From assembly GCA_020720365.1 (NCBI GenBank), contig DYOU01000001.1, positions 32,459 through 96,458 on the forward strand: a DNA stretch of 64,000 nucleotides, in the 5' to 3' direction. Positions 24,480-64,000 of this stretch are shown here, in pieces. The notes below the pieces were generated by a model. The model was not told where the DNA came from and did no database searches. It was given only the letters and a program-made list of their open reading frames with translations. Source of the DNA: Candidatus Elulimicrobium sp. GTDB lineage: Bacteria; Omnitrophota; Gorgyraeia; Zapsychrales; Fredricksoniimonadaceae. Numbering within the stretch: position 1 is the first letter of the stretch; each line of letters opens with the position of its first letter. Both the position numbers and the translations under genes were made by a program.

Positions 24480-25187
24480 ATGGAAAAGAGAGAGAAGCTC
24501 TACGAAGGTAAAGCAAAAATTCTTTACGCGACGGATCATCCGGACCTGGTCATTCAGTATTTCAAGGATGATGCGACGGCTTTTAATGCCAAGAAGAAGG
24601 GCACTGTTGATGAAAAAGGCATTATGAACAACGGGATCTCCGCGAAGATTTTTGAGTATCTCGGGGCGAATGGCGTGCCGACTCACTTTGAGAAGCAGTT
24701 AAGTGACCGGGAAATGCTGGTAAAGAAAGTTCAGATCGTTCCTGTTGAAGTTATTATTCGTAATCGTGCGGCGGGATCGTTGTGCCGTAATTACGGGGCT
24801 GTTGAAGGTAAGGTTCTTTCTCGTCCGATCTATGAGTTGTGTTACAAGAATGATGCGTACAATGACCCTCTGATGAATGAAGATCATGTCATTACGCTGG
24901 ATCTGGCGACGGATGCGGAATTGGCGGATATGAAGAAGATCACGTTTCAGGTGAATGAGCTGTTAAAGAAGTTTTTTCTGGCACTGAATATCGAGTTGAT
25001 CGATTTCAAGATCGAATTCGGCCGTTATAAGGGAAAGATCATTCTGGCCGATGAAATATCCCCGGATACGTGCCGCCTCTGGGAAGTGGGTACTGGAGTG
25101 CGCCTGGATAAGGATCGTTTTCGTAATGACCTTGGGAATATCAAGGAAGGTTATCAGGAAGTATTAAAACGGGTTACGCATAAATGA
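24480..25187 (+). CDS. purC: Phosphoribosylaminoimidazole-succinocarboxamide (SAICAR) synthase
   Basis: MEKREKLYEGKAKILYATDHP...; ~235 aa. ORF-track start 24369 overlaps purB; ATG 24480 is preferred. Confidence 0.85.
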   Translation: MEKREKLYEGKAKILYATDHPDLVIQYFKDDATAFNAKKKGTVDEKGIMNNGISAKIFEYLGANGVPTHFEKQLSDREMLVKKVQIVPVEVIIRNRAAGSLCRNYGAVEGKVLSRPIYELCYKNDAYNDPLMNEDHVITLDLATDAELADMKKITFQVNELLKKFFLALNIELIDFKIEFGRYKGKIILADEISPDTCRLWEVGTGVRLDKDRFRNDLGNIKEGYQEVLKRVTHK

Positions 25188-50482: not shown

Positions 50483-51553
50483 ATGAAAAGGGTACTGATC
50501 ACAGGCGGCTGCGGGTTTATCGGGTCAAGTTGCGCTATAGACCTGGCATTGCGCGGCTATGCGGTGACGGTGCTAGATAATCTTAGCCGCCGCGGATCGG
50601 AGTTCCTTCGTGCTGTAGTTGAAGCTCAGGGCATAGATTTTGTTCTCGGGGATATCCGTCAGCCAGGAGATCTGGCCAGATTGAGCGGTGAATTTTCCTT
50701 GATGATCGAATGCAGTGCCGAACCTTCGGCTTTTGCGGCAATGCAGGGGAAAGACGCGCGCCATCTGCTGGATGTTAATTTGCTGGGAGCGATCAATTGT
50801 TTTGAATGGGCCCGCGAACATGGCGTGCCTGTTCTGTTTCTTTCCAGTTCGCGGGTGTATCCGCATGATCGCATCAATTCCTGTCAGTATAAAGAATCAG
50901 AAGATCGCTTTAACCTTGCGGCCGACGCTCCGGGGATCGGAAGTCAGGGTATTCAATTGGATATGCCTCTTCAGGGAGTGCGTTCACTTTATGGCGCCAG
51001 TAAACTGTCAGCGGAAATGATCCTTCAGGAATATGCCTTTCTCTACAAACTTCCGTCGATCATTGATCGTTGCGGGGTGATCGCTGGGCCTGGTCAATTG
51101 GGGCGGAGCGATCAAGGGTTTTTTACCTATTGGCTGGCGGGGCATTATTTCAAGAGGCCTTTGCAATATATGGGGTTTGGCGGCCTGGGGAAACAGGTCC
51201 GGGACCTTTTGCATATCCAGGATCTTGTGCGCCTTCTGGCAGAGCAGGCGGAATGTTTGATCAAGAGGCCGGCTGAGTTCCAGGGAAAAATATTTAATGT
51301 TGGTGGGGCGATCGAGCGGACGCTTTCTTTAAAGGAAGCGACCGCGATCTGTGCTGAGTTAACAGGACATACGCTGAGGATCGGAAGTGTTCCTGGAACG
51401 CGGCCGGGAGACGTGATCTGGCAGGTGATGGATAATTGTGAAACGAGTCGTTTCTTTCATTGGCAGCCGCAGATCCCTGTGCAGGGGATCCTGGAAGATA
51501 CCTATCGATGGCTGCGAGATAATGAAAAGAATTTGAAAGATATTATTGTGTAA
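50483..51553 (+). CDS. NAD-dependent epimerase/dehydratase (extended SDR; CDP-paratose-2-epimerase/UDP-sugar epimerase-like)
   Basis: VLITGGCGFIGS Rossmann motif, YxxxK (YGASK); 356 aa. Confidence 0.75.
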   Translation: MKRVLITGGCGFIGSSCAIDLALRGYAVTVLDNLSRRGSEFLRAVVEAQGIDFVLGDIRQPGDLARLSGEFSLMIECSAEPSAFAAMQGKDARHLLDVNLLGAINCFEWAREHGVPVLFLSSSRVYPHDRINSCQYKESEDRFNLAADAPGIGSQGIQLDMPLQGVRSLYGASKLSAEMILQEYAFLYKLPSIIDRCGVIAGPGQLGRSDQGFFTYWLAGHYFKRPLQYMGFGGLGKQVRDLLHIQDLVRLLAEQAECLIKRPAEFQGKIFNVGGAIERTLSLKEATAICAELTGHTLRIGSVPGTRPGDVIWQVMDNCETSRFFHWQPQIPVQGILEDTYRWLRDNEKNLKDIIV

Positions 51554-51559
51554 CTCTCC

Positions 51560-52639
51560 TTGGAGAAAAAGATGAAGATCGCATTGGTGTCTGGATCTGC
51601 CGGGCTTGTTGGTTCTGAAGCGGTCCGGTTTTTTCACGGGAAAGGTTTTCAGGTTGTCGGGATCGATAATAATATGCGCAAGGTCTTCTTCGGCGAGGAG
51701 GGGACAACCGCATGGAATCTGACGGAACTTCGGGCTGAATGCGGTGATGGATTCATGAATCATGATGTAGATATTCGGGATGCCGTTGCTGTTGCGCGTG
51801 TTTTTGCCGAATATGGTCAAGATATTGACGTGATCATTCATACGGCGGCTCAGCCTAGCCATGACTGGGCTTCAAAAGAACCCATTATTGATTTTAGTGT
51901 GAATGCGCTGGGAACTCTTCATTTGCTTGAGAGTGCGCGCAAGTATTGCCCGCAGGCTGTCTTTATTTCCATGTCTACCAATAAAGTGTATGGTGATCAT
52001 TGTAATCGTCTGCCTTTGGTCGAGCTGGAAACACGCTGGGAGCTGGACCCGTCGCACCCGTATTTTTCAAAAGGGATCGATGAGCAAATGCCTCTGGATC
52101 AGAGCACACATTCCCTGTTCGGCGCGTCAAAACTTTCGGCGGATATCCTGACGCAGGAGTATGGGCGGTATTTTGGCATGAAGACCGGTACGTTTCGCGG
52201 CGGATGTTTATCGGGATCCCGGCATAGCGGAGTACAGCAGCATGGCTATTTGGCCTATTTAATGCGGTGTGCCATGATCAGGCGGGAGTACCAGATCCTG
52301 GGGTATAAGGGCAAACAGGTACGGGATAATATTCACAGTTATGATCTGGTGAATGCTTTTTATCATTTCTACGAGAATCCCCGGTGCGGGGAAGTGTATA
52401 ACATCGGCGGCAGCCGGTTCAGCCATTGCTCCTTGCTGGAGTCTGTTCAGATGTGCGAAAAGATCACAGGCAACAAGATGAAGATCTCCTATGTGGAGGC
52501 GAATCGTCGGGCTGATAATATCTGGTGGGTGAGTGATGTCTCTAAATTTTCTGGCCATTATCCATCCTGGGAGTTGACTAGGAATTCTGAAGATATCCTG
52601 ACAGAACTGTTTACGTATAACCATTCTCGTTGGGTCTAA
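51560..52639 (+). CDS. NAD-dependent epimerase/dehydratase family protein (second paralog); likely start ATG 51572
   Basis: [12 protein letters not shown] glycine-rich motif, FGASK catalytic motif; 359 aa. Confidence 0.7.
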
Positions 52640-52642
52640 TCG

Positions 52643-53572
52643 GTGAGCAGGGACACTCTCGTTAGTGTAGTCATTCCTACCTGCGGCCGAAATGATTATT
52701 ATATTTCTTGTATTCAGTCGCTTCTTCAGCAGGCGCATTCCTTCTTAGATATTATTGTGGTGGAGAATTCAGGGGATCTGGCTCTTGAGGGGAAGGCCCT
52801 GGTGCTTTGCCCGGCGGCAAGGGTTGTTCAGGCTCCGCAGGGATCATCGTATTGCGATCTAATGAACACAGGGATCGGGTTAAGCCGTGGTGAGCATATT
52901 CTTTGCCTGAATGATGATGTAACGCTTGATCCGGCGTTTCTTGAGAATGCGTTGAAAGGTTTTACGCTGGATCCTCGCATAGGGATGGTCACAGGCAAGG
53001 TGTTAAGGCAGGATCGAACGACGCTGGATACGACAGGTTTGTTCCTGGGTATTTGCAGGACAGCACAAGAAAGAGGGTATGGGCAGGCGGACCGCGGGCA
53101 ATTCCAGAGGGAGGGGTTTATTTTTGGCGTGTGTGGGGCGGCTGCTTTTTATCGTAAGACGATGCTTGATGAGATCAGGGAAGGTCAAGATTGGTTTGAT
53201 CCTCGTTACCGGTTCTTTTATGAAGACCTTGATATTGCATGGAGAGCGCAGAGAAGAGGTTGGAACGCTTACTACATACCTGATGCGGTGGCGTATCATG
53301 TGCGCGGAGGTTCTATCCGTGGCAACGGAGGGCAGGGGAAGCCATTTGCCCGGAAATATTTAAGTGATGAAATGCATGCAGCCTTGATCCGGAACCGATA
53401 CAGGACAATCATGAAGAATGAAACGTTGGGCGGGCTTATCCTTCATTTGATCCCGATCATCCTGTATGAGCTTTGGGCATGGGCCTATATTATTTTCTTC
53501 AGGCCGAATGTTGTGAGGGTATTTGTTGCGGAGCTTTGTTCAGTAAAAGGCCTAGCAGAATACACCAGATAA
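52643..53572 (+). CDS. Family 2 glycosyltransferase (rhamnosyl/galactosyl-transferase-like GT2)
   Basis: VSVVIPTCGRNDY, LNDDV (DxD) motifs; 309 aa. Confidence 0.75.
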   Translation: MSRDTLVSVVIPTCGRNDYYISCIQSLLQQAHSFLDIIVVENSGDLALEGKALVLCPAARVVQAPQGSSYCDLMNTGIGLSRGEHILCLNDDVTLDPAFLENALKGFTLDPRIGMVTGKVLRQDRTTLDTTGLFLGICRTAQERGYGQADRGQFQREGFIFGVCGAAAFYRKTMLDEIREGQDWFDPRYRFFYEDLDIAWRAQRRGWNAYYIPDAVAYHVRGGSIRGNGGQGKPFARKYLSDEMHAALIRNRYRTIMKNETLGGLILHLIPIILYELWAWAYIIFFRPNVVRVFVAELCSVKGLAEYTR

Positions 53573-54662
53573 AACATGTTTCCGGAAAGAAGAATGTAAA
53601 GTCGATGCAGTTATGGAGAAGAAAGGCCAGTGATCCGCATAGCAGCCCTGCCGTCACAGGTTTGTCCGCGGCTGTTTCCAGGGCACGAAATCCTGAGCGG
53701 ATAAGTGTTGTTATCAGAAATATAAAAGAAGCGAAACCCGCCAGGCCTGTTTCTGCCCATAGCTGAAGAAAGTTGTTATGCGCATAGCGGGCGTTGATCA
53801 GGTCAAGATGGCCGAGCCCGATCCCGAACAAGAGATGTTCCTTGATGATCAGGGCTGTCTGCAGCCAATAACTTAAACGCATTCGCATGGAGTAGTCTGG
53901 CTGGAAATGTTGGAATTGGGATGATGTTCGGAGGGCAAAGATGGCCGCTGCCAGAGTGAATAGCCCGATCAGCAGTACGGTTATAAGGAGCGTAATGGTG
54001 CTGTCTTTTTCTTTCTTTTGTTTGAACGCGAAGAAAATAGCCGCGGCAGCCAGTAAACAGACGATCGCTCCGATAGATTTGGAGAGCAGAAGGGCGAAAA
54101 ACAGCGGCAGGACGACCCAGGCATTGTCTTTCAGTGTAAGGGCAAGAGGAATGATCATAATGAGGTATCCCGCGAGTGTATTGGGAGTAATAAAAGGTGT
54201 AAACACCCTTTGCTGGGCAATGAAGTTACGGGCAACCGGATCAACGGTCTTTGTTTCATTCAGATAGTTTTTAATATTCTGGAATCCGCTGAAAAACTGA
54301 TTAAGATCCAGGAAGCTGATGAAGACCGCCGTCAGAATAAGGGTTATGATGACGGTGTTCTTTTGATCTTCTGCCAAAGACCGGCAAACGAAGAACAGCA
54401 GAATGCCATTCAGATATTGCAACAGGGTTAAAGCAGAGAGCAGCTTGTTGTGAGAGGGGATTAATGAGAATAAAAGAGCGGCTATGAATAACAGGACTGC
54501 CGTTGTCAATCTTCGATCGTCCCATAAAGGTGTTTCCTGAATGAATATCCAGCTGGCCAGAAAAGTGGCAAGCGCGATAGAATGCATCAGGTTGAACTCA
54601 GGGAAGGCTGTTGAGCAGATGAACGGACGGATAATAATCAGAAGTAATAGCAGAATAAACAT
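53499..54662 (-). CDS. O-antigen ligase/Wzy-like polytopic membrane protein (Wzy_C-type)
   Basis: ~10 hydrophobic helices; pattern with conserved R/H-containing periplasmic loop region (YAHNNFLQLWAETG). 3' end overlaps the convergent GT2 gene. Confidence 0.55.
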   Translation of the reverse strand: MFILLLLLIIIRPFICSTAFPEFNLMHSIALATFLASWIFIQETPLWDDRRLTTAVLLFIAALLFSLIPSHNKLLSALTLLQYLNGILLFFVCRSLAEDQKNTVIITLILTAVFISFLDLNQFFSGFQNIKNYLNETKTVDPVARNFIAQQRVFTPFITPNTLAGYLIMIIPLALTLKDNAWVVLPLFFALLLSKSIGAIVCLLAAAAIFFAFKQKKEKDSTITLLITVLLIGLFTLAAAIFALRTSSQFQHFQPDYSMRMRLSYWLQTALIIKEHLLFGIGLGHLDLINARYAHNNFLQLWAETGLAGFASFIFLITTLIRSGFRALETAADKPVTAGLLCGSLAFLLHNCIDFTFFFPETCFIWCILLGLLLNKAPQQIPSQHSA

Positions 54663-54747
54663 GAATTTAAGTATACAATATCTTTAAGTTGTTTCCTATA
54701 ACATCACAATATTTTCAATGATTAATGGATCATTCAAGGATGAATTA

Positions 54748-54912
54748 ATGACATGGCTGCTGATGTTCTTCTGATCATTTGCCCTGTTTGGGCTGTTGAT
54801 TTACCTTCTTCAGGCCTGCTTATATCGCGGCTTATTTAGAGAAGAAGGGTGTTCCATGCGACATTCTGGATTTAAACCTTGTTATGTACGAGTCTAAATT
54901 CATGTAATGTGA
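54748..54912 (+). pseudogene. Frameshifted N-terminal remnant of a B12-binding-domain radical SAM gene
   Basis: Frame a: MAADVLLIICPVWAVDLPSSGLL... stops. +2 frame continues PAYIAAYLEKKGVPCDILDLNLVMYESKFM*, the canonical start of a B12-binding domain (LP.LGLAY.AAYL.K.G..V...D). No downstream domain; a related intact gene starts at 62090. Confidence 0.55.
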
Positions 54913-55204
54913 CGGCGTCAACTGATCCTGAGATCTTTCCGGAAAAGTTCGGGATAATATTTCCAGAAGGGAAAAGCCCGTGCGAGTATTGGGAAAGTTC
55001 AGACGGGACGAATACGTTTGATGTCAGAAAGCGCAGGGTTTTGGAGATCTTTCAGTTATTAAAAGAACTGAAAGTTACAACATATTATGTAGGTATTTAT
55101 GATGGAGATAGTCCTCTCTAAGAGGCTTGTCGGAAAGGTAGAATGTGTGGCTGGTATAAGTATTTGTGCGGATATTGTTAGATAGGCCAGTCCGGTCAGG
55201 AATA

Positions 55205-56365
55205 ATGCCCGAAAAAAAGATTAATGTACTTTATGTGATCACCAAGCTTGAATTAGGCGGCGCTCAAACGCATGCGCTCGATCTGATTCGGAGTATTGAC
55301 CAGAACAAGTTTAATGTATTTCTTTTCTCTGCGCGGGAAGGGCTGTTAGTTGAGCAGGCGTTGAATATTCCCGGATTGAATTTTTATCGCTCGTCTTTTC
55401 TGGAACGGCGTATTCATCCGGTTAAAGATGTTTGTACGGTTATTTCTTTATATTTCTATATCAAAAAGCATAAGATTGATTTCATTCATACACATAGTTC
55501 AAAGGCTGGTATTTTAGGAAGGTTCGCGGCGAAAGCGGCGGGATTGAGAGGCATTGTTCATACCGTTCATGGTTGGAGTTTTCATGAATATCAGTCGAAG
55601 GTTGTGTATAATATCTTTCTTTATTTAGAGCGACTTTGCGCGCGATTTACTGATAGACTGATCGTTGTTTCTCTGCTTGACCGGGAGACGGGTGTTCAGC
55701 TGGGGGTAGGGCCGCCAGAAAAGTATAGACTCATTCGATGCGGGTTGGATGCAGAGCGTTTTAGTGTCAAAGGGCCGCTCGCGAGTGCGCGGGCAGCATT
55801 GGGGTTATCTGAAACTGATCTTGTGGTTGGGATGGTGGCCTGTTTCAAGCCGCAGAAAGATCCCTTAAGTTTTGTTCGATTAGCTGCGGCTGTCAGAGAA
55901 AAGCTCCCGCATGTTAGATTTTTCTTGGTTGGTGACGGAGTCTTGCGGGGGGAGATCGCGCGTTTGATTGGAAGTTTTGGCCTTCAGGAGAATATTCTTT
56001 TATTGGGATGGCGCCGGGATATGCCGTTGATTTATGCGGCCATGGACCTGTGCGTATTGACGTCATTATGGGAGGGCTTGCCGATCGCTATCATGGAGGC
56101 GATGGCGTCAGGCGTTCCCGTGATTGTTACGGATACCGGAGGTGTTCGGGATGTTGTCCGGGATGGAGAAACGGGCTATTTGGTTAAAGCCGCGGATGTT
56201 GAGGCTATGCGGGATAAAGTGATATTGTTATTGAAAGATCCGGAGTTAAGGGAAGATATAGCGGGAAGAGCCGTGGAATGGATCAGGAATGATCTGTTTT
56301 CTTTAAGGCATATGATGCATAAAGTTGAGGGCTTGTATCAGGAGCTTTGGATTAAGCATGGGTAA
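55205..56365 (+). CDS. Family 4 (GT-B) glycosyltransferase
   Basis: EGLPIAIMEAMASGVPVIVTDTGG (E-x7-E region) typical of GT4; 386 aa. Confidence 0.8.
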   Translation: MPEKKINVLYVITKLELGGAQTHALDLIRSIDQNKFNVFLFSAREGLLVEQALNIPGLNFYRSSFLERRIHPVKDVCTVISLYFYIKKHKIDFIHTHSSKAGILGRFAAKAAGLRGIVHTVHGWSFHEYQSKVVYNIFLYLERLCARFTDRLIVVSLLDRETGVQLGVGPPEKYRLIRCGLDAERFSVKGPLASARAALGLSETDLVVGMVACFKPQKDPLSFVRLAAAVREKLPHVRFFLVGDGVLRGEIARLIGSFGLQENILLLGWRRDMPLIYAAMDLCVLTSLWEGLPIAIMEAMASGVPVIVTDTGGVRDVVRDGETGYLVKAADVEAMRDKVILLLKDPELREDIAGRAVEWIRNDLFSLRHMMHKVEGLYQELWIKHG

Positions 56366-57341
56366 ATATTTATTTCTTTTCTCTTCAGTGTTTGTTTTTA
56401 GCCTGTTTGTCATGTGGGTTTTACGTAAGTTTGCGTTTAAGACCAAGGTTTTAGTTTCAAAGAATATTGCGTTGATCGGCGGAATAGGTATTGCTATCGG
56501 GCTGGCTTTCTCGTCAGGTCTTGGTTTTCTTGTTTTTGGCCTTGATCCGCGTCAGATCGTGCCTGTTATCGGGATATCTCTGGTCATGCTGTTATTTGGA
56601 GTCATGGATGATCTGCGAGAGGCCTCAGTTCTTCAAAAGATTCTATTACAGTGTATCGGAGCGGTATTGCTGATCAGTATCGATATCAGGACGCATATTG
56701 TGTACCTGGATTACTGGAGTAATTGCGTTATTACTTTTTTTTGGATTCTGGGGATTACGAACGCGTTGAATTTGTTGGATACAATGGATGGGTTAAGTTC
56801 GGGAGTTGCGTTCATTGCGACGATCGCATTGTTTGTTCTTTCACTCTTTTATCCTGATATTAATATTCAAATACTGGCGTTAGGTTTATCGGCCGCTATT
56901 CTCGGGTTCCTTGTTTTTAATATCCCTCCGGCAACGATTTATTTAGGAAATGCCGGGAGTCACTTTTTAGGCTTTCTTCTGGCGGCGCTTACTTTGATGG
57001 TGAGTTATACTGTCCTGGACAGTTCAGTGGCCCTGGTGTGTCCCATTATTATTCTTTGGGTTCCTTTGCTTGAAACGGTGTGTTTGATCTATTTTCGTTT
57101 AAGAAAAAGCATTATTCCATTTAATAAAAGTAATGATCATATCGCCTTCAGATTGATGGCTTTAGGGTGTACGCGTCACGGTGTATTATTGATCATGCTG
57201 GGATTGGCGTTGTTTTGCGCGCTTTGCGGGATAATGATTGGCCGGATGAATAATATTATTGGGGCGGTAATTGTGATGGCCGTTGTTATCGTGAGTTTTT
57301 TCTTTTTTAAAGTGCTGACGAAAGCCGAGTGCCATGGCTAA
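56358..57341 (+). CDS. Polyprenyl-phosphate N-acetylhexosamine-1-phosphate transferase (WecA/WbpL/MraY family, initiating enzyme)
   Basis: NALNLLDTMDGLSSG (NxxNxxDGxDGL) motif, ~10 TM helices; 327 aa; overlaps upstream GT4 stop. Confidence 0.8.
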   Translation: MGKYLFLFSSVFVFSLFVMWVLRKFAFKTKVLVSKNIALIGGIGIAIGLAFSSGLGFLVFGLDPRQIVPVIGISLVMLLFGVMDDLREASVLQKILLQCIGAVLLISIDIRTHIVYLDYWSNCVITFFWILGITNALNLLDTMDGLSSGVAFIATIALFVLSLFYPDINIQILALGLSAAILGFLVFNIPPATIYLGNAGSHFLGFLLAALTLMVSYTVLDSSVALVCPIIILWVPLLETVCLIYFRLRKSIIPFNKSNDHIAFRLMALGCTRHGVLLIMLGLALFCALCGIMIGRMNNIIGAVIVMAVVIVSFFFFKVLTKAECHG

Positions 57342-58632
57342 TCAGGAAGTTATTATTTTAGGCGCGGGCCTTGCCGGATTAAGTGCGGCGTATCATCTGC
57401 AGAAAGAAGGAGTTGCCTGTCAGATCTTTGAGAAAGAGGCTGAGGTTGGAGGATTGTGCCGTTCAAAGAAGCTGGATGGATTTACATTTGATTATGATGG
57501 CCATTTGTTGCATTTTCGGCATCAGTATACGTTTGATCTGGTCAAGTCATTGCTTAAGGGAAACTTTATAAAACATAATCGGAGCGCATGGGTATATTCG
57601 CACGAACGTTTTATTCCCTATCCGTTTCAGACGAATCTTGTTAATCTTCCTGTTGATGTCGCGCAAGAGTGCCTTGCAGGTTTTCTGGCAGCAAACAAGA
57701 ATGGCCGTGTAAAGGCGAATGAAAGTTTTTTGCATTGGATTGATCGGACTTCTGGAAAGGGGATCGCCCGGCATTTTATGGTGCCGTATAATACCAAGTT
57801 CTGGACCATCTCTCCCCGACGAATGGTGTGTGATTGGCTTGACGGGTTTGTGCCTCAGCCGACGGTCGCACAGGTTATGGATGGAGCAACGAAAGAAGGT
57901 GGTCAGCCGTTAGGGTATAATGCTTGTTTCTGGTATCCTGAAAAAGGCGGTATTGAACAACTTTCTTTAGCGATGAAGTCGCGCATCGAGCATATTCATA
58001 CGGGGTTTGAAGTTAAAACGATTGATCTGAAAGCGCGGCAGATCGAATTTGCCAATGGTGTAAAGAAAAAGTATCATCATTTGATCTCAACGATCCCTTT
58101 GCCTCAATTGCCCGGGATTGTGAAGGGGCTTCCGAAAGATGTGCGGGAAGCGTTTAGCAAGCTGCGCTGGAACTCGGTGTATAATTTGAATCTGGGATTG
58201 AGTCAAAAGAAGCGTTGTGAAAGTCACTGGATCTATTTTCCCCAGAAAGAATTGGTTTTTTTTCGTGTCGGGTTCTTTCATAATTTTTCATCCGGCCTTG
58301 TTCCTGAGGGGAAGACTTCTATATATGCTGAAGTTGCGTATTGTAAACAAAAACCTGTTGATAAGAAGAAGGTCGCCGGTCGCATTGAGAAGGACCTGAA
58401 AAAAGTCGGATTGCTTTCTGATGAAGATGAGGTTTTGGTACGTGATAGTAATGATATCCAGTGCGCATATCCTATTTATGACAGAAATTACAAAGCTTCC
58501 AGGAGTCGTATCCTGGGTTTCTTGTCCAAACATCATATTCTGACTTGCGGGCGCTATGGCAGTTGGCGGTATATGTCTATGGAGGATGTTTTATTGGAGG
58601 GCAGGGAGTTTTCCGGAAAGCAGTTTGGCTGA
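57334..58632 (+). CDS. FAD/NAD(P)-binding oxidoreductase (amine-oxidase/UDP-galactopyranose-mutase-like fold)
   Basis: VIILGAGLAGLSAAYHL...EKEAEVGG dinucleotide-binding motif; 432 aa; in glycan cluster. Confidence 0.65.
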   Translation: MANQEVIILGAGLAGLSAAYHLQKEGVACQIFEKEAEVGGLCRSKKLDGFTFDYDGHLLHFRHQYTFDLVKSLLKGNFIKHNRSAWVYSHERFIPYPFQTNLVNLPVDVAQECLAGFLAANKNGRVKANESFLHWIDRTSGKGIARHFMVPYNTKFWTISPRRMVCDWLDGFVPQPTVAQVMDGATKEGGQPLGYNACFWYPEKGGIEQLSLAMKSRIEHIHTGFEVKTIDLKARQIEFANGVKKKYHHLISTIPLPQLPGIVKGLPKDVREAFSKLRWNSVYNLNLGLSQKKRCESHWIYFPQKELVFFRVGFFHNFSSGLVPEGKTSIYAEVAYCKQKPVDKKKVAGRIEKDLKKVGLLSDEDEVLVRDSNDIQCAYPIYDRNYKASRSRILGFLSKHHILTCGRYGSWRYMSMEDVLLEGREFSGKQFG

Positions 58633-58667
58633 TTAGTTGTGATAATATTTTCTTGGTAATTTTAACC

Positions 58668-59486
58668 ATGATGAAATTATGGAATAGTTTTAAAAGAATG
58701 AAATTCTGTCAATTTCTCTCTGCCGTGGCTGGGTTTCAACAAAGAGAAGTTTTGAGGAATCTGGTCAATAAGAATTTGAAAGCCAAATATGCCGGATCCA
58801 TGCTGGGCATGTTGTGGGCGTTCATTAATCCTGTTTTACTGGCATGTATAGTAGGATTCATATTTACAAACATCCTTAAAGTGAATACGCCGAATTATTA
58901 TTTATACATTTTATCAGGGATGCTGCCCTGGACATTCTTTGCGACATCGATACAGGAAGCTTCAGTATCTATCCAGGGGCATGCGAGTCTTTTGAAACAA
59001 TTCCCTTTAGCCAGGATCTTTATTCCGGTTGCGATCGTTATATCAAATTTTATTCTTTTGTTATTTAGTCTGACGATTTTACTTCCCCTTTTCCTTATTG
59101 TTGATTTGAAAGTTATCACCTTGTTGCCATTATTAGTGTTTGCTCTGATCATATTATTGTTGTTCACGCTCGGATTATCTTTGATGTTCGCGGCCATATG
59201 CGTTGAATGGCGTGACGTGCAGCAGGCATTAAACACATTGCTGGTTTATTGGTTATGGTTGACGCCGATATTTTATAGTGCACAGATGGTCCCAAGGGAT
59301 TATAAAATTCTTTTAGACATTAATCCTATTAATTTTTTCTTGATCTTGTACAGGAATTCTTTATTTGATGTAAAAACTCCTTCTTTAGGTGTTTTGGGGA
59401 TCCCTGTGATCATGGCATTGGGAGCCTTATGGTGCGGCATTGTTTTGTTTCATAAGAAAGAAGGGGGGTTTTTAAAAAGAATATGA
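58668..59486 (+). CDS. ABC-2 type polysaccharide export permease (Wzm/KpsM-like)
   Basis: Six hydrophobic segments, ABC-2 signature region. In-frame ATG 58668 gives ~272 aa, typical for Wzm; ORF-track start 58545 is probably too far upstream. Confidence 0.75.
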   Translation: MMKLWNSFKRMKFCQFLSAVAGFQQREVLRNLVNKNLKAKYAGSMLGMLWAFINPVLLACIVGFIFTNILKVNTPNYYLYILSGMLPWTFFATSIQEASVSIQGHASLLKQFPLARIFIPVAIVISNFILLLFSLTILLPLFLIVDLKVITLLPLLVFALIILLLFTLGLSLMFAAICVEWRDVQQALNTLLVYWLWLTPIFYSAQMVPRDYKILLDINPINFFLILYRNSLFDVKTPSLGVLGIPVIMALGALWCGIVLFHKKEGGFLKRI

Positions 59487-61786
59487 AGATGGAAACAGAT
59501 ATTGCCATTCAATTAAAGAATGTTTTTGAGAATTATGAAATTGAAATAAAGACGGATGAAAAAGTGATCCGTGAGAGATATTCAGTTCTGAATGATATTT
59601 CATTGACGGTAAAAAAAGGTGAATGCCTGGCTGTCATTGGAGCTAACGGAGCGGGCAAGTCAACGATTTTGAGGATTATTGCGGGTCTCCTGAAGCCTGA
59701 AAAAGGTGAAGTTACGGTGAACGGCCGGGTGGGCAGCCTCCTGGATCTGGGAGCGGGATTTCATCCCGAGTTGACAGGCAGGGATAATTTGCGTTTGAAC
59801 GCGAGTCTGTACAATTTTAACCGGAATGAGTTTGAAGCAAAGTATGAAGAGATCCTGAAGTTCGCTGATATTGGCAAGTTTATTGATGTGCCGGTGCGTT
59901 GCTATTCGCAAGGCATGTATGTGCGTTTAGCGTTCAGTTTGGCTATTCATGTTGATCCGGACATTCTTTTGATCGATGATTGCCTTTCTGTTGGGGATGA
60001 TAATTTTCAGTTAAAAAGCATGGATAAAGCGCTGGAGTTAAAGAGCAAGAATAAAACCATTATCTTTGTTACACATAATTTCAGTTTGGCAAGACAGTTG
60101 TGTGAACGTTGTATTTATATTAAAGATCATCAGATCGTTCAAGATGCCGCTCTGGAAGAGGTTGTGTCAACGTATTTGGCACCGTCCAAGATCGATAAAG
60201 AGCAGTATCATTATTTAAGCGCCAAGATCCATGAAATAGAAAGTTACGAGGAAAGTCAGGAAGCAAAGCGGCAACAGCAGGAACAAGAACGAAGAAGGTC
60301 TGAAGAAGAGGCGGCATTCAATGAAATGATGGGGCGTCGGCAGTTGGAAGAAGAAATTTTCCAGAAAGCGCTGAGTGAGCGGCGCAAAGCCGAGGAGATT
60401 GCGTGGGGGCAGGCCGTGGCAGCACGGCGCGCGGAAGAAGAAGAGTTATGGAGAAATGAAGTGGCAGCGCGGCGCGAGGCGGAAAGAGATCGGGAGTTAT
60501 TAAAGAAGAATCACCAGAGAACGAAAGAGGTTTCTTTGTATGCGGGAGCGCTTAAGTTGGCCGTTGCTCCTTCACAAATCAGATTGTTATGTGATCATGT
60601 GAATGTGATACGCAATGCGGGCATTCAGACGCTCTTTCTAAAAGATAATATATTGGTTTGTTCCGCAACGGCCGAATGGCGGATAAAGAAGATCTCTGAA
60701 GCGCAGATCGCCTGTTTCTTAAGGTGGCCGGGATTGGAGGGCGTGGTACAGCGCTGGCATTTCATTCGTTTGGAGAATGGGGTTACAGGGCTTTGCATTT
60801 CCATGAGAGTTGCGGCATCCGTTTGTATTGAGAATGAACGTGTGGAATTCTGGCCGAATACAACAGGTGGAGTTCTGGAGGATGCTCAATGGGGCAATAA
60901 GTCCAGGTTTGTATTTTTGGGGGATCAGGGTAAAGTGCAGGTTGAAACATATCAAGATGATTGTGTTTCCGGTTCGGTTGATCAGGATGATGGTCGTCGT
61001 GTACCATATTTCTTAAAAACATGTGCTGATACTATTCTGAGTCCGGAACGAGCATCCTATCGGAAAGTTGTCTTTAATGGCGGTATCTTTCTTGGAGACA
61101 AGAGCGCTGAAAAGCGTCCGATGGTTCTGGAAAGAAGAATCTTGAGATCAGAAAATCTTGCGGTTGATTTTCAGGAGGGATGTTGTCAGATCATTTTGGG
61201 TGAGAAAGTAATAACAACCGGATTAGGTCTTTATACATCTGTTTTCTCACACGGTCTTTGGCGGGACTCAACGCAGGCTAAATGGAAGGTGGTATCTTTT
61301 TCAGGGAATAAGTTGACTGTAAGAGGGGCTTGGCCATGGATGCCTGTTATTCAGGAATGGCAGGTTGAGATCGCAGGGCAAAACAGGATCTTGTTAAATG
61401 TAAGAATGAAGATATTAAAAGATATCATGATCGATATGCAGGAGACGGTGTTGATGTTGCCGCAGGAGTATTCATCATGGAGCGATGGGAATGTATTTCA
61501 AAGATTCTCAGAAAATATGACCAGTGATGATTTCTTCAGACTTTGTTCCTTGATAAAGGAAGCGGATGGATCGGCTTCTGTTTCTGTTAAAGGAGAGGGT
61601 TTGCCGGAGATCAATTTTAAACCAGGTTTTATACAGGGGCATCGAATGATCGTTGAGAATTCAGCGCATATTTACAAGACGCAGGCTCGTCTTATGCATT
61701 GTTTAAAGGGATATCAGAAGGAAAAGGGAAGCGTTAAGGCCGGGGAAATGGATTTTTTTAAAGGGATTCTTACTATTAATAATTAG
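59483..61786 (+). CDS. ABC transporter ATP-binding protein (Wzt-like) with ~110-aa Glu/Arg/Ala-rich coiled coil and ~400-aa C-terminal extension made of two related beta-rich (Trp-rich) domains
   Basis: Walker A GANGAGKST, signature YSQGMYVRLAF, Walker B ILLIDD within first ~250 aa. Residues ~260-360 EEAAFNEMMGRRQLEEEIFQKALSERRKAEE... Then duplicated region (AEWRIKKIS...LRWPGLEG...QRWHF vs AKWKVVSFS...GAWPWMPVIQEWQV). 767 aa total. Confidence 0.8.
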   Translation: MKMETDIAIQLKNVFENYEIEIKTDEKVIRERYSVLNDISLTVKKGECLAVIGANGAGKSTILRIIAGLLKPEKGEVTVNGRVGSLLDLGAGFHPELTGRDNLRLNASLYNFNRNEFEAKYEEILKFADIGKFIDVPVRCYSQGMYVRLAFSLAIHVDPDILLIDDCLSVGDDNFQLKSMDKALELKSKNKTIIFVTHNFSLARQLCERCIYIKDHQIVQDAALEEVVSTYLAPSKIDKEQYHYLSAKIHEIESYEESQEAKRQQQEQERRRSEEEAAFNEMMGRRQLEEEIFQKALSERRKAEEIAWGQAVAARRAEEEELWRNEVAARREAERDRELLKKNHQRTKEVSLYAGALKLAVAPSQIRLLCDHVNVIRNAGIQTLFLKDNILVCSATAEWRIKKISEAQIACFLRWPGLEGVVQRWHFIRLENGVTGLCISMRVAASVCIENERVEFWPNTTGGVLEDAQWGNKSRFVFLGDQGKVQVETYQDDCVSGSVDQDDGRRVPYFLKTCADTILSPERASYRKVVFNGGIFLGDKSAEKRPMVLERRILRSENLAVDFQEGCCQIILGEKVITTGLGLYTSVFSHGLWRDSTQAKWKVVSFSGNKLTVRGAWPWMPVIQEWQVEIAGQNRILLNVRMKILKDIMIDMQETVLMLPQEYSSWSDGNVFQRFSENMTSDDFFRLCSLIKEADGSASVSVKGEGLPEINFKPGFIQGHRMIVENSAHIYKTQARLMHCLKGYQKEKGSVKAGEMDFFKGILTINN

Positions 61787-61796
61787 GAGGGCAGGT

Positions 61797-62093
61797 ATGA
61801 GGACGGCATTAATGTTAAAGAACTCAGCGCATTTTATTTTGTTGGCAGGTATGATTATGGCCATTTATTTCTTTCCTGTTAATACGTTTCAGTTCTGGTG
61901 TGTGATCGGCCTGACGGGAGTATTGTGGTTGATCGTAAGGCTTTTGGCTAATATAGGCCAGCTTGTATATGAAATGCGTCATGAGTCAGGTCGGTCTTTG
62001 GCGAATATGGAGCGTTCTCTCCATCAGATCAATGCTACGTTGCAGGAAATGAGGGATTCTATTGATTCCAAAGGAGCCAAGGACGCTGCATGA
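61797..62093 (+). CDS. Small 2-TM membrane protein (98 aa) translationally coupled between wzt and the radical SAM gene
   Basis: Hydrophobic segments FILLAGMIMAIYFF and FWCVIGLTGVLWLIV; stop overlaps the next ATG (ATGA). Confidence 0.5.
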   Translation: MRTALMLKNSAHFILLAGMIMAIYFFPVNTFQFWCVIGLTGVLWLIVRLLANIGQLVYEMRHESGRSLANMERSLHQINATLQEMRDSIDSKGAKDAA

Positions 62094-64000
62094 AGATCGT
62101 ATTGGTTAATTTACCATGGAAAAGAAAAGGCTTATGGGGTGTGCGGGCCGGTTCAAGGTGGCCGCATATTAAGAGTGCATTGGAGAAGGATTATTCCCCC
62201 TTTCCGTTCTTTATGGCTTATGCGGGGTCTTTGTTAAAACGGGAAGGGTTTGAGGTTGAGGTGATCGATTCTTTGGCCCAACAATTACCTCTTGGCCGAT
62301 TACTTAAGCTTTTGAATGATAGTCAACCGGACTTATTAGTTGCGGAAACATCAACGCCATCGTTGGCGAATGATCTGGCTATCCTGCAGAAACTGCCGCA
62401 AGGGTTGGCGGTGGCTTTATGCGGACCGGAGATCAATATTCGTGACGGACAATTTCTGGCGAGACATCCGCGTATTACATACGCGTTTGTGGGGGAGTAT
62501 GAATATACACTTCTGGAATTGGCGCAACGTTTAAAAGCCAGGCAGGATCTGGCCGGTTTATGTGGTTTGATCTATATGAATAACGGGGTGTGTCAAACAA
62601 ATCCGGCGAGGCCTTTGCGCGAGGATCTGGATGATCTGCCATGGCCTTTAAGGGATGGGCTGCCGATGGAAAAGTATAAGGATACTCCCGGAGGGATCCC
62701 TTCCCCCAGTGTTCAGATGTGGTCGTCACGGGGGTGTCCGTATCATTGTTTATTTTGCAGTTGGCCGCAGTTGATGTATCAAAGTCATCGCTACAGGACG
62801 CGTAATGTGATCGATATAGTGGATGAGATGGAATATCTTGTGACTGTAAAGGGTTTCAAGTCGGTTTATTTTGATGATGATACGATGAATATTGGCAAGT
62901 TACGCATGATGGTATTGGCGAATGAGATTAAACGCAGAGATCTGAATGTGCCTTGGGCGATGATGGCGCGGGCGGATTTGATGGAAGAGGATGTTTTGGA
63001 AAATCTGCGCGCGGCCGGATTAACGGCTGTGAAATATGGAGTAGAGTCAGGCAATCAAACGCTTGTTGATCGGAGTAATAAGAAACTGGACCTTCAGAAA
63101 CTTGAACGTATGGTTCGTTTTACCAAATCCCTTGGAATTAAAACGCATTTAACGTTTACTTTCGGGCTTCCGGGAGAGACGCAAGCGACGATTCAACAGA
63201 CAATTGACTTTGCAAAAGAGCTGGATCCTGACTCACTTCAGTTTTCGATCACAACGGCATTCCCGGGAACACAATATTTTAATGAATTGGAAACATGCGG
63301 GCATATTGTTTCAAAAGACCTTAAAGATTATGACGGGAGTTCCAGGGCGATGCTGCGAACGGATTCTTTAAGCGCCGGAGATTTGCGGAGAGCGAAACAG
63401 CTGGCGGATAAAGCCTGGCAGATGCATGTATGGAGGACCAGACCGCAGGCAAGAACCACAGAAGGTTTGCTTGGGAGATCTATCAGGAACATTAAGGATT
63501 ACGGTTTTCAGTCGTTTTTATCAAGAGGAAGTTTGTTTCTCAGGCATCGGTTTCGGATGCCAAAGTTTGAGCGGATCAATAAATTCTTGAGTTTTGACTG
63601 GCGAATAACGTTGGCACGCCCATTGGGTCAGTGGGAGAAAATAAAGAAGAATGTGTTGAATTTAATGGGTGTGCAGCATGGTTCGTATGCTTTTAAAGGG
63701 CCGGACTGTGTCCAGATCGATCTCACCAGTAATTGTAATAATAATTGTGTGAGTTGCTGGTGTAACTCTCCACTCCTGCAGGCGCGGGCGTATAAAGGCG
63801 TGAAAAAGTACAAGACATTGCCGACACAGCTTGTTCTTTCTTTGATTGATGACCTTGTCGAGATGGGTACAGGCGAGCTTTATTTCTCCGGCGGAGGAGA
63901 GCCTTTTATGCATCCGGATATCATGACTATTATGGCTCATGCCAAAGCGCGCGGCGCATATTGTTGTATTAATACGAACTTTACACTTGTTAATGAAGAA
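62090..64000 (+). CDS. B12-binding-domain radical SAM protein fused to a second radical SAM (MoaA/SPASM-like) domain; 3' end beyond window
   Basis: Manual translation: MKIVLVNLPW...FMAYAGSLLKREGFEVEVID (B12-binding region). First CxxxCxxC: GCPYHCLFCSW (~aa 215). Then TIM-barrel region, then second core QIDLTSNCNNNCVSCW plus FSGGGEPFMHPD (~aa 545-600). No stop through position 64000. Not in the ORF track because it lacks an in-window stop. Confidence 0.75.
   Translation, partial: MKIVLVNLPWKRKGLWGVRAGSRWPHIKSALEKDYSPFPFFMAYAGSLLKREGFEVEVIDSLAQQLPLGRLLKLLNDSQPDLLVAETSTPSLANDLAILQKLPQGLAVALCGPEINIRDGQFLARHPRITYAFVGEYEYTLLELAQRLKARQDLAGLCGLIYMNNGVCQTNPARPLREDLDDLPWPLRDGLPMEKYKDTPGGIPSPSVQMWSSRGCPYHCLFCSWPQLMYQSHRYRTRNVIDIVDEMEYLVTVKGFKSVYFDDDTMNIGKLRMMVLANEIKRRDLNVPWAMMARADLMEEDVLENLRAAGLTAVKYGVESGNQTLVDRSNKKLDLQKLERMVRFTKSLGIKTHLTFTFGLPGETQATIQQTIDFAKELDPDSLQFSITTAFPGTQYFNELETCGHIVSKDLKDYDGSSRAMLRTDSLSAGDLRRAKQLADKAWQMHVWRTRPQARTTEGLLGRSIRNIKDYGFQSFLSRGSLFLRHRFRMPKFERINKFLSFDWRITLARPLGQWEKIKKNVLNLMGVQHGSYAFKGPDCVQIDLTSNCNNNCVSCWCNSPLLQARAYKGVKKYKTLPTQLVLSLIDDLVEMGTGELYFSGGGEPFMHPDIMTIMAHAKARGAYCCINTNFTLVNEE

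Follow-up and report, generated by a model that had tools for sequence, protein, structure and literature searches.

A predicted surface-glycan assembly and export cluster downstream of dnaJ in an uncultured Candidatus Omnitrophota

Gene content of the locus

The window analysed here is the whole stretch of 64 000 nucleotides, and the genes found at its positions 50483–64000 support the identification of a putative cell-surface glycan (O-antigen-like polysaccharide) assembly and export cluster in this uncultured Candidatus Omnitrophota. This cluster occupies a slot directly 3' of the conserved hrcA-grpE-dnaK-dnaJ operon and extends approximately 6.4 kb beyond the window, with two more radical-SAM genes (rSAM2 and rSAM3) and a GT4 gene (GT4b). 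An initial annotation had listed an O-antigen-like cluster of SDRs, GT2, a minus-strand Wzy/ligase-like gene, GT4, a WecA-like gene, Wzm, Wzt and an rSAM gene after dnaJ; Pfam and NCBIfam searches at the domain level confirmed and refined this list, and the O-antigen-like character was likewise upheld. As every NCBIfam match fell below its curated cut-off, substrates are called at the family level only. The features are as follows:

50483–51553, plus strand: SDR1, extended SDR, CDP-tyvelose/paratose 2-epimerase-like (Pfam Epimerase, 8.8e-29)
51560–52639, plus strand: SDR2, second CDP-tyvelose 2-epimerase-like SDR (Pfam Epimerase, 4.7e-35)
52643–53572, plus strand: GT2, family-2 glycosyltransferase (Pfam Glyco_tranf_2_3, 1e-18)
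53499–54662, minus strand: Wzy_C-family (PF04932) polytopic membrane protein (Pfam Wzy_C, 1.8e-16)
54000–55200, no strand: compositional break, GC from about 0.50 to about 0.44, low up to the contig end
54753–55115, plus strand: relic of a decayed B12-binding radical-SAM/GDSL gene homologous to rSAM3, with a frameshift and about 360 codons lost internally
55205–56365, plus strand: GT4a, family-4 (GT-B) glycosyltransferase (Pfam Glycos_transf_1, 8.2e-37; Glyco_transf_4, 8.9e-21)
56358–57341, plus strand: WecA-like PNPT (Pfam Glycos_transf_4, 1.5e-31; NCBIfam ECA_wecA, 1.4e-24, below cut-off)
57334–58632, plus strand: eukaryote-type UDP-galactopyranose mutase homologue (pyranose/furanose mutase), from PDB sequence matches
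58668–59486, plus strand: Wzm, ABC-2 permease (Pfam ABC2_membrane, 3.8e-14; NCBIfam galactan export permease, 6.8e-20)
59483–61786, plus strand: Wzt (767 aa), whole gene, NBD plus helix plus two β-domain copies
59483–60151, plus strand: Wzt NBD (aa 1–223; Pfam ABC_tran)
60152–60439, plus strand: Wzt linker (aa 224–319), predicted as one helix of about 96 residues, E/R/K-rich (AF2 full-length model)
60515–61783, plus strand: Wzt C-terminal region (aa 345–767), all-β, in two tandem units of about 200 aa each, Pfam-less family
61797–62093, plus strand: 98-aa protein, two TM helices and a charged helix (five-locus alignment, 39–57% identity)
62090–64000, plus strand, continuing past the window: rSAM1, N-terminal 637 of 910 aa visible

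The small 98-aa protein was absent from the initial gene list. Reading frames are coupled at two points, the Wzm stop overlapping the Wzt start and the small-protein stop overlapping the rSAM1 start.

The two SDRs are paralogous (30% identity, E 3.6e-38), and their PDB sequence matches are CDP-tyvelose 2-epimerases in both cases (1orr, 1.8e-32, and 9rl0, 3e-30, as the top matches of SDR1; 9rl0, 3.5e-36, and 1orr, 4.7e-32, for SDR2). The product of 56358–57341 is a candidate polyprenyl-phosphate HexNAc-1-phosphate transferase, and as such the putative initiating enzyme. The next gene, described initially as an FAD oxidoreductase, is indeed present, and its identity could be refined from PDB matches: it aligns with the Trypanosoma cruzi UGM (4dsg) at 7e-50 across aa 4–414, and with that of Aspergillus fumigatus at about 1e-41. 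However, the flap arginine of the FMRPYN motif is replaced by valine, so that UDP-Gal may not be the substrate of this homologue.

Homologous loci in relatives

Wherever the retrieved contig was long enough, hrcA-grpE-dnaK-dnaJ was kept. Synteny of the cluster itself is not conserved in all relatives: it followed dnaJ in only one (contig L016) of the 48 relatives in which 8 kb or more is available past this gene, and two relatives as close as L016 (L005 and L008) carried giant ORFs or a pseudopilin there. L016 has SDR1 through the mutase homologue at 44–76% identity (65% for SDR1, 45% for the Wzy_C protein, 58–64% for GT4a-WecA-mutase), its proximal eight genes lying in the same place. It is divergent from Wzm on: identity falls to 35% in Wzm itself, and a GT2-rSAM fusion takes the place of Wzt. 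Four other contigs (L087–L090) also carry the Wzm-Wzt-small protein-rSAM1 cassette, at sites unrelated to this one, with identities of 51–52% for Wzm (L087–L089) and 61–69% for rSAM1. One cassette-bearing contig comes from a MAG whose dnaJ is on another contig, this single MAG being the extent of the check for a cassette elsewhere in close relatives lacking the cluster after dnaJ. The convergent GT2/Wzy_C pair, whose genes overlap by 74 nt at the 3' end of GT2, is also kept in L016 and L088 (40% identity for the L088 Wzy_C protein). In the Wzt and rSAM1 searches, all close homologues were from Omnitrophota.

Compositional break

The initial annotation had proposed, by eye, a lower GC than in the flanking genes, in a cluster starting at 50483 and noticeably AT-rich from about 53.6 kb. 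The drop is real, and its position has to be moved approximately 4 kb downstream of dnaJ, to 54–55 kb. Upstream genes (n = 44) have a GC of 0.506 ± 0.024 and a GC3 of 0.556 ± 0.032, and SDR1, SDR2, GT2 and the Wzy_C gene are within this native range (GC3 0.50–0.54, z −0.6 to −1.7; 0.524 for SDR1 and 0.536 for SDR2). All genes from GT4a on (GC3 0.470 for GT4a, the first gene within the block) have GC 0.37–0.46 and GC3 0.43–0.50 (z −1.9 to −3.9; Mann-Whitney p = 1.3e-6). This block covers at least 17 kb, running past the window to the contig end, its distal edge lying beyond. GC is lowest in the membrane proteins Wzm, WecA and UbiA; the soluble mutase, Wzt, rSAM2, rSAM3 and GT4b also show a GC3 drop of about 0.10. 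Of the two AT-rich examples given initially, 59.0–59.5 kb is confirmed (GC 0.40 over 59–60 kb), and the 54.66–55.2 kb ‘spacer’ is indeed low in GC (0.425 over 54–55 kb) but is not empty, as it holds the relic.

The relic sits at the break. By blastx it matches rSAM3 over aa 4–27 (58% identity) and aa 390–457 (31% identity; E 1e-7), its N-terminus aligning with the true rSAM3 start, and the nucleotide repeat D2 connects the two; at the same place, L016 has a spacer of approximately 48 bp. Nothing in the oligonucleotide signature points clearly to a foreign origin, the TETRA correlation of the cluster (0.65–0.70, against 0.70–0.79 among upstream chunks) and its dinucleotide distance both being near the within-genome range. 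The genome is strongly GC-skewed, and this skew carries on through the cluster; codon bias rises only modestly relative to upstream genes (p = 0.02). Searches around the cluster for a tRNA, an integrase, and flanking or att-like repeats found none.

Origin of the locus

The presence of the cluster after dnaJ in a single relative, the divergence of L016 from Wzm on and the cassette at unrelated sites indicate that the locus is variable, mosaic and exchanged within the phylum, and recombination among related Omnitrophota glycan loci is its most likely history. The initial suggestion of a horizontally acquired or fast-evolving serotype-like locus is thereby retained in its weaker form, to which the relic at the break also contributes. 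Its strong form, i.e. a recent genomic island spanning the whole 50.5–64 kb cluster and coming from a foreign donor of lower GC, is very unlikely. Such an island would account for a significant GC and GC3 drop across at least 17 kb and for the 47 relatives without the cluster after dnaJ; yet SDR1, SDR2 and GT2 are compositionally native, the oligonucleotide signatures and GC skew stay close to those of the genome, the usual marks of integration looked for around the cluster were not found, the close homologues all belong to Omnitrophota and the proximal eight genes are in the same place in L016. We also observed that the low-GC block includes GT4a-WecA-mutase, common to L016, so that a simple swap relative to L016 fails to explain the position of the break.

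That the lower GC arose without any transfer, for instance from the many membrane proteins, from codon selection relaxed under low expression or from a mutational bias of the region, is unlikely, if less so than an island. The lowest values in membrane proteins, the host-like oligonucleotide signature, the modest change in codon bias and the GC of approximately 0.44 in the homologous cassettes of L087 and L088 are all consistent with it, whereas the drop shared by soluble enzymes, a step-like change coinciding with a pseudogene relic and the L016 orthologues, whose GC3 equals that of the L016 housekeeping genes, argue against it. Finally, the step at about 54 kb could be an assembly chimera of two Omnitrophota populations, since the source contig is metagenome-assembled and independent Logan contigs with identical proteins (L002–L004 and L086) stop short of spanning 54–55 kb. 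This is highly improbable, as the order GT2, minus-strand Wzy_C, GT4a, WecA and mutase across the junction is also found in the independent assemblies L016 and L088, and GC skew and strand bias are unbroken there.

Exporter and radical-SAM enzymes

In a profile search of the PDB, the Wzt NBD is closest to Aquifex Wzt (6amx and 7k2t, about 1e-72), followed by TarH/TagH and Mtb RfbE. Whereas canonical Wzt ends in a jelly-roll CBD, here the NBD is followed by the helix of about 96 residues, with repeat-like length variation among aligned homologues, and by two β-supersandwich-like domains. No Pfam match was found for this C-terminal region at E ≤ 10. Its AF2 model (pLDDT 90.3, pTM 0.88) retrieves with Foldseek the β-supersandwich domains of LacZ, GH38, 1,2-β-oligoglucan phosphorylase and YidC P1. 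This β-domain is rare (357 matches among 1.84e9 representatives); it was found in 101 of 120 Wzt homologues and, among the matches listed, in 50 of 120 rSAM1 homologues. Wzt CBDs recognize caps (PMC6379404), and by analogy we infer that the β-domain may bind the glycan.

rSAM1 is a fusion of an HpnJ-like B12-binding radical-SAM half (NCBIfam HpnJ, 1.5e-67, 228 bits for a cut-off of 577 bits) with a second half of radical-SAM/SPASM type (NirJ/PqqE-type matches for aa 529–637; Radical_SAM twice plus SPASM in Pfam at full length). These double radical-SAM enzymes of about 900–1400 aa, the best-conserved of the cassette, form at least 120 clusters, assigned to Omnitrophota wherever the source name states a phylum. 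In each of the five aligned loci, the 98-aa protein, for which a Pfam search gave no match, lies between Wzt and rSAM1. That the radical-SAM genes are a separate system (e.g. for peptide or lipid modification) merely adjoining the glycan genes is hardly credible: SPASM radical-SAM enzymes frequently mature peptides, there are weaker NCBIfam matches to lipid-type B12-rSAM models and L089 has a run of seven further small rSAM genes, but translational coupling joins Wzm, Wzt, small protein and rSAM1, whose adjacency is kept in five loci, at least 16 contigs are, from their matching lengths, apparently common to the Wzt and rSAM1 match lists, the β-domain is shared, and NBD, β-domain and rSAM/SPASM occur on single chains (P0088, P0093 and P0096).

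Proposed pathway

We consider it likely that the locus encodes an ABC-transporter-dependent, polyprenol-phosphate-linked glycan pathway, in a variable slot after dnaJ and made mosaic by recombination among Omnitrophota loci. In the predicted order of steps, the WecA-like transferase would load HexNAc-1-phosphate onto undecaprenyl phosphate, and GT4a, GT2 and GT4b would lengthen the chain on the cytoplasmic side, from substrates that would include a furanose provided by the mutase homologue and sugars epimerized by both SDRs. rSAM1, rSAM2 and rSAM3 would tailor the lipid-linked glycan, Wzm/Wzt would export it and the Wzy_C-family protein, probably a periplasmic ligase, would transfer it to an acceptor. 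The initial annotation had singled out the Wzy/ligase-type protein alongside Wzm/Wzt as worth noting; this combination is not anomalous, and is expected if this protein is the ligase, as PF04932 contains the WaaL ligases that ABC-transporter pathways require and that complete them (PMC6379404).

The acceptor itself may differ from LPS. The Wzy_C protein could instead act as an oligosaccharyltransferase, giving an O-glycan on a protein or S-layer, or some other glycoconjugate; such a product is possible though less probable, and it affects the acceptor only, being otherwise compatible with the pathway above. PF04932 spans WaaL ligases, Wzy polymerases and PglL/WsaB-type O-oligosaccharyltransferases; the NCBIfam models matched, below cut-off, are the O-glycosylation ligase and IctB family rather than a WaaL model, and a PDB sequence search with this protein gave no match, WaaL included. 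Nevertheless, LPS is compatible with all the data, Omnitrophota are diderm bacteria of the PVC group and the cluster has no candidate acceptor-protein gene.

Whichever the acceptor, the more interesting result of this analysis is the Wzt β-domain shared with double radical-SAM enzymes: as modelled, it appears to be an undescribed, β-supersandwich-like domain, present also in radical-SAM enzymes encoded beside such exporters.

Genomic setting and gene content

The 50 kb upstream of the glycan cluster encode ordinary housekeeping functions (purB, purS-purL, purD, glyA, an ABC-F protein, a hybrid histidine kinase, a HemN-like protein, a CCA-adding enzyme, miaA, hflX, clpB and hrcA-grpE-dnaK-dnaJ), and thus form a fair compositional reference. 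DnaJ (49312-50442) has an identical sequence on CDCMAX010000008.1 of GCA_974330425.1, and of 80 related dnaJ loci taken from GTDB genomes, nearly all belong to Candidatus Omnitrophota MAGs. The + strand carries almost all genes of the window; the GC skew is approximately +0.2 over all 64 kb, individual 1-kb bins ranging from about +0.12 to +0.32, and this strong skew is unaltered across the low-GC cluster. Two upstream genes are recorded here as observations in their own right:

25184-28093, +, PurS-PurL fusion in one 969-aa ORF (PurS, FGAR-AT linker and AIRS domains)
44965-46002, +, MORN-repeat protein between clpB and hrcA, its position kept in many relatives (24-63% identity)

The contig around Wzt was fetched, and the cluster runs on past the window end. 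From the genes found there, the glycan locus extends from ~50.5 to 70.4 kb on a scale prolonged beyond the window. The features referred to below are as follows.

Selected genes of the glycan locus and its 3' flank, in order
53499-54662, minus, Wzy_C-family (PF04932) protein
55205-56365, GT4a
57334-58632, mutase homologue
58668-59486, Wzm
59483-61786, Wzt
61797-62093, conserved 98-aa protein with two TM segments, between Wzt and the radical-SAM gene
62090 to beyond the window, rSAM1 (910 aa), a fusion of an HpnJ-like, B12-binding radical-SAM half with a second half of the radical-SAM/SPASM type
beyond the window, rSAM2 (597 aa), with rSAM and SPASM domains
beyond the window, rSAM3 (772 aa), with B12-rSAM and GDSL/SGNH domains
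3' of rSAM3, a 51-aa ORF, then GT4b (389 aa)
70405-71786 window-equivalent (20923-22304 of the contig reaching past the window, L085), minus, UbiA-family and AA_kinase-family genes after GT4b, followed by the contig end

The UbiA-family and AA_kinase-family genes 3' of the cluster are both of low GC. In other bacteria, the addition of pentofuranose to glycans is fed by UbiA-type phosphoribosyltransferases.

All the domains named in the initial annotation were recovered by Pfam and NCBIfam. Wzm (PF01061) and Wzt (PF00005) lie in adjoining genes with overlapping stop and start codons, as do the small protein and rSAM1, so that both pairs are probably co-translated. Initiation and elongation are represented by a WecA-like protein (PF00953), a GT2 and two GT4, and no MOP/Wzx-type flippase occurs among the genes called between 50.5 kb and the end of the contig data at 71.8 kb (extended scale). 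The Wzm/Wzt pair, WecA-type initiation, cytoplasmic glycosyltransferases and lack of Wzx are those of an ABC-transporter-dependent glycan pathway. Both SDR proteins, 30% identical to each other, have the solved CDP-tyvelose 2-epimerases 1orr and 9rl0 as top matches (E from 1e-30 to 1e-36), and the cluster holds no gene for a cytidylyltransferase, a CDP-glucose dehydratase or RfbH/S. Promoter and terminator counts were close to the shuffle expectation and are uninformative; an Rfam scan detected no riboswitch or other RNA family in the whole window.

The co-occurrence of a Wzy/ligase-type protein with Wzm/Wzt, singled out in the initial annotation, is to be expected: the PF04932 protein is most simply predicted to be the ligase. 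It may act instead as an O-oligosaccharyltransferase; a PDB sequence search returned no match for it, and in sequence it is compatible with ligases, polymerases and O-oligosaccharyltransferases alike. Its gene converges on that of GT2 with an overlap of 74-164 nt in three independent genomes (window 53499-53572; L016, a relative's dnaJ locus, 14210-14310; L088, a contig with the cassette at another site, 4552-4715).

The gene first described as an FAD oxidoreductase matches UDP-galactopyranose mutases of the eukaryote type over its full length (7e-50 across aa 4-414 against Trypanosoma cruzi 4dsg; about 1e-41 against Aspergillus fumigatus). Full-length homology and an FAD-binding N-terminus are accompanied by three conserved motifs: the His loop (aligned ‘DGH’), the arginine of FYRA (‘FFRV’) and GRxGxWRY near the C-terminus (‘GRYGSWRY’). 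The arginine of the mobile flap, which binds the substrate diphosphate (FMRPYN), is missing: the protein reads FMVPYN, and this valine makes its substrate and activity uncertain.

A decayed gene at the compositional break

The stretch 54,663-55,204, regarded at first as an AT-rich spacer, holds a decayed gene:

54753-55115, +, relic of the B12-radical-SAM/GDSL type, related to rSAM3

The relic starts with an ATG at 54,753, opening MAADVLLIICPVWAVDLPSSG, and reads PAYIAAYLEKKGVPCDILDLNLVMY after a frameshift, with 58% identity to the rSAM3 N-terminus. The 75 codons after this correspond to rSAM3 aa 390-457 (31% identity; E 1e-7 by blastx on a small database), and a deletion has removed the complete radical-SAM core (~360 codons); the similarity to rSAM3 was visible at the nucleotide level too in a repeat search. 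The equivalent spacer is only ~48 bp long in L016 and ~64 bp in L088, and the relic is absent from both, hence it is specific to this lineage. We rejected a recent duplication of rSAM3 and GT4b as the source of the relic and GT4a, the two GT4 proteins being only 24% identical. The relic's position coincides with the compositional break.

The 44 upstream genes have a GC of 0.506±0.024 and a GC3 of 0.556±0.032. SDR1, SDR2, GT2 and Wzy_C fall within this native range (GC3 0.50-0.54), and all genes between GT4a and GT4b, these two included, have a GC3 of 0.43-0.50 (z -1.9 to -3.9; Mann-Whitney p=1.3e-6 against the upstream genes). The UbiA gene has 0.41 (z -4.5). At third positions, C decreases from 0.199 to 0.142 as A and T increase. 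The lower GC reported for the cluster is real, but it begins at ~54-55 kb and not at the dnaJ boundary. Oligonucleotide usage was also compared: the correlation of TETRA z-scores is 0.65-0.70 between the low-GC block and upstream chunks, and 0.70-0.79 among upstream chunks themselves; Karlin's dinucleotide distance of the block is similar to that of within-genome comparisons, and codon bias, measured against the upstream genes, is raised only modestly (p=0.02). The GC shift is robust, and the oligonucleotide signature does not look foreign. Taken alone, the GC observation is ordinary, surface-polysaccharide loci being well known as variable regions of lower GC.

Variable position and mosaic history

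The order hrcA-grpE-dnaK-dnaJ is kept in every retrieved contig of sufficient length. Of the 48 loci that extend 8 kb or more beyond dnaJ, a single one, L016 (CAIVRE010000030.1; 82% identity in DnaJ, 91% in DnaK), carries the cluster at this position.

Identity of L016 orthologues to those of the window
SDR1, 65%
SDR2, 76%
GT2, 57%
Wzy_C, 45%
GT4a, 58%
WecA, 64%
mutase, 62%
Wzm, 35%

After Wzm, the place of Wzt is taken in L016 by a GT2-radical-SAM fusion (19643-21134; CNLSCRIC motif), within which the locus stops. In this relative, GC3 is the same in the cluster (0.60-0.70) as in housekeeping genes (0.60-0.74). Two other relatives as close as L016 (L005 and L008) have other genes after dnaJ, and the slot 3' of dnaJ seems variable in general. 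The contents of these two loci are:

L005 11815-19023, two ~1150-aa ORFs with zero Pfam matches
L008 11424-17916, a pseudopilin-like protein and a 1867-aa protein with HATPase_c as sole match

Four contigs with the cassette at other sites were chosen, three (L087-L089) via full-length Wzt homologues and one (L090) via the closest rSAM1 homologue. All four display the order Wzm, Wzt, ~100-aa protein and ~910-aa double radical-SAM enzyme, with varying combinations of companions (GT4a, WecA, mutase, GT2 and Wzy_C orthologues, rSAM2- or rSAM3-like genes, GDSL proteins, GT4b) and unrelated flanks (PFK/SMC, RNR/GGDEF or PMT_2 GT-C genes). Within the cassette, conservation is highest for rSAM1 (61-69% identity). 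L090 and a relative's dnaJ locus (L020) come from one MAG, on separate contigs; together with the single occurrence after dnaJ, this shows that the cassette has no fixed position. In L089, seven consecutive radical-SAM genes (15608-22475; ~340 aa each, some with SPASM, the last cut by the locus end) lie 3' of the rSAM1 homologue.

Several explanations of this pattern were weighed. The features of a classical genomic island are lacking: a tRNA scan of the window gave zero hits, which, with the empty Rfam scan, leaves neither a tRNA-linked insertion site nor a riboswitch; a repeat search of the whole cluster detected no flanking att-like repeats, only chance short matches besides the relic/rSAM3 similarity; no recombinase domain occurs among the cluster genes; TETRA and delta* values are host-like, and the distal end lies past the contig end. 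In addition, megablast of 55,166-64,000 against a plasmid collection gave no match. A simple swap relative to L016 was likewise rejected as the cause of the GC break, as homology breaks at Wzm (~58.6 kb) and GC at ~54 kb.

The locus is a mosaic in a variable slot after dnaJ. Its proximal block, SDR1 through mutase, is common to the window and one relative, and its distal Wzm-Wzt-rSAM module is nearer to cassettes that lie elsewhere in other genomes. The most economical account is that related glycan loci of Omnitrophota have recombined with one another. Constraint acting alone on these genes would produce lower GC by itself, and the host-like oligonucleotide signature fits such an origin; set beside this, the GC3 drop is as clear in soluble enzymes as in membrane proteins, and we consider constraint alone rather unlikely. 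An assembly chimera would place a GC step inside the contig, as found here, and the strong skew runs on through it; this explanation appears very improbable. Of the initial proposal of a horizontally acquired or fast-evolving locus, the milder form is partly supported; a recent foreign import is not upheld.

A new domain in Wzt

Wzt has 767 aa, and ~25 homologues can be aligned over its full length (41-48% identity). In a PDB search, the Wzt of Aquifex aeolicus is the nearest match to its NBD, followed by TarH/TagH and the mycobacterial RfbE. An AF2 model of the whole protein (pLDDT 80.7) predicts an NBD (aa 1-223), a single continuous helix (aa 224-319), a low-confidence stretch and two β units. 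The helix is rich in E, R and K and shows repeat-like length variation among homologues. Modelled alone, the C-terminal 423 aa reach a pLDDT of 90.3 and a pTM of 0.88, and the two units bear a weak in-register similarity to each other.

This region is not the canonical jelly-roll CBD (PF14524, Wzt_C): aa 345-767 have zero Pfam matches even at E<=10, and the model contains two ~200-aa supersandwich-like units. Foldseek against the PDB returned YidC P1 and β-supersandwich domains from carbohydrate-active enzymes (LacZ domain 5, GH38 mannosidases, 1,2-β-oligoglucan phosphorylase), with E-values of 6e-7 to 1e-3 and low TM-scores (0.3-0.5); no canonical Wzt CBD figured among the top 50 hits.

An exhaustive HMMER search of 1.84 billion representatives retrieved only 357 proteins with the new unit at E<=1e-3, in one to five tandem copies. 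In local searches, it was present in 101 of the 120 best Wzt homologues, those bearing PF14524 (P0106-P0120) being devoid of it. It was also present in 50 of the 120 best rSAM1 homologues, as a single N-terminal copy in those of ~1150-1230 aa, and as one copy between the radical-SAM halves plus one C-terminal copy in those of ~1390-1440 aa. Finally, three proteins (P0088, P0093 and P0096; about 1212-1220 aa) unite a Wzt NBD, two new units and rSAM/SPASM on a single chain.

Canonical Wzt CBDs recruit capped O-antigens, the pathway being completed by WaaL (PMC6379404); by analogy, we infer that the new domain may bind the glycan of this locus.

Radical-SAM enzymes

The N-terminal half of rSAM1 covers nearly the full HpnJ model (aa 20-432, 1.5e-67), with a CxxxCxxC motif and a weak B12-domain match. 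Its score of 228.5 bits is well below the TIGR03471 cut-off (577.6), so that rSAM1 is not an HpnJ equivalog, and an identity as HpnJ was also rejected on its Wzm/Wzt context. Compared with HpnJ, which makes the hopanoid cyclitol ether, rSAM1 is fused to a second radical-SAM/SPASM domain and lies in a context of glycan export, not of hopanoid synthesis.

The occurrence of one domain on both exporter and radical-SAM enzyme, the fusions and the conserved adjacency lead us to argue that radical-SAM chemistry would act on the exported glycan, whether by methylation, an HpnJ-like rearrangement or otherwise.

Comparison with known systems

The Klebsiella pneumoniae O1/O2 D-galactan I locus (wzm-wzt-wbbM-glf-wbbN-wbbO) makes an ABC-transporter-dependent O-antigen. 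It has in common with the present locus an initiating step of the WecA type on undecaprenyl phosphate, a UDP-galactopyranose mutase or its homologue, glycosyltransferases acting in the cytoplasm, export through Wzm/Wzt and a Wzy_C-family protein, here the probable ligase. By contrast, the mutase homologue of the window belongs to the long eukaryote type, the glycosyltransferases are not WbbM, WbbN or WbbO, Wzt combines a long helix with a duplicated new domain, and three radical-SAM enzymes and two CDP-tyvelose-2-epimerase-like SDRs are added.

Exporters of capped O-antigens (Escherichia coli O9a, Raoultella/Klebsiella O12, A. aeolicus WzmWzt) carry a C-terminal jelly-roll CBD (PF14524), and in O9a WbdD acts as a coiled-coil ruler (PMC6379404, PMC3482155). 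The present Wzt resembles them in its NBD, nearest in sequence to that of Aquifex Wzt, in a long helical element and in an all-β C-terminal extension that is probably carbohydrate-binding. However, this domain is ~200 aa, tandem and supersandwich-like, whereas theirs is a jelly roll of ~150 aa; the helix lies within Wzt rather than in a separate terminating enzyme; and here, where kinase, methyltransferase and Kdo-transferase terminators are all missing, radical-SAM enzymes are the sole candidates for capping.

Mycobacterial galactan synthesis (WecA, Glf, GlfT1/2; Wzm/Wzt as RfbD/RfbE) follows the same WecA and mutase logic, with RfbE among the best PDB matches. Galactan export models of NCBIfam ranked first for Wzm (permease, 6.8e-20) and third for Wzt (ATPase, 7.9e-49, after two TagH models at 1.2e-51 and 6.3e-50), all far below cut-off. 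Unlike mycobacteria, the locus has no GlfT-type polymerases, and acceptor and envelope differ.

Two preprints describe hypervariable cell-surface polysaccharide cassettes in Omnitrophota genomes, with CDP-paratose 2-epimerase noted as mobile cargo (bioRxiv 10.64898/2026.05.20.726742, 10.64898/2026.06.07.730766), so the variability of the locus is not new. The cassette described there (Wzc/Etk, AlgI/J, heptosyltransferase) is unlike the present cluster, and term searches of the two texts found neither a radical SAM-Wzm/Wzt link nor the Wzt domain. The locus differs from known ABC-transporter systems by its Wzt architecture and radical-SAM set; the export pathway itself is known.

Possible coupling of glycan modification to export

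These elements can be assembled into a variant of the ABC-transporter pathway proper to Omnitrophota, a scheme that we regard as speculative and doubtful in its entirety. The B12-rSAM plus SPASM-rSAM enzyme would make a modification at the chain end or along the chain, and the tandem β-domain of Wzt would read it ahead of export. The new domain would also bring the radical-SAM enzyme to the glycan. The helix of variable length between NBD and domain would set the distance from the membrane at which the glycan end is sensed, thereby acting as a chain-length ruler within the transporter, and radical-SAM chemistry would stand in place of the known terminators.

The family of Wzt C-terminal domains deserves pursuit, together with its connection to double radical-SAM enzymes: in a conserved module of Omnitrophota, export by Wzm/Wzt is coupled to a large enzyme of this type, and an undescribed domain is common to the exporter ATPase and the enzyme. 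If this domain reads a mark made by radical-SAM chemistry, it would represent a new coupling of chain completion to export and, if true, would give a first clue to the function of a protein family that ranks among the most conserved unannotated ones in this poorly understood and mostly uncultured phylum. Surface glycans of Omnitrophota may matter for the host-attached lifestyle proposed for the phylum.
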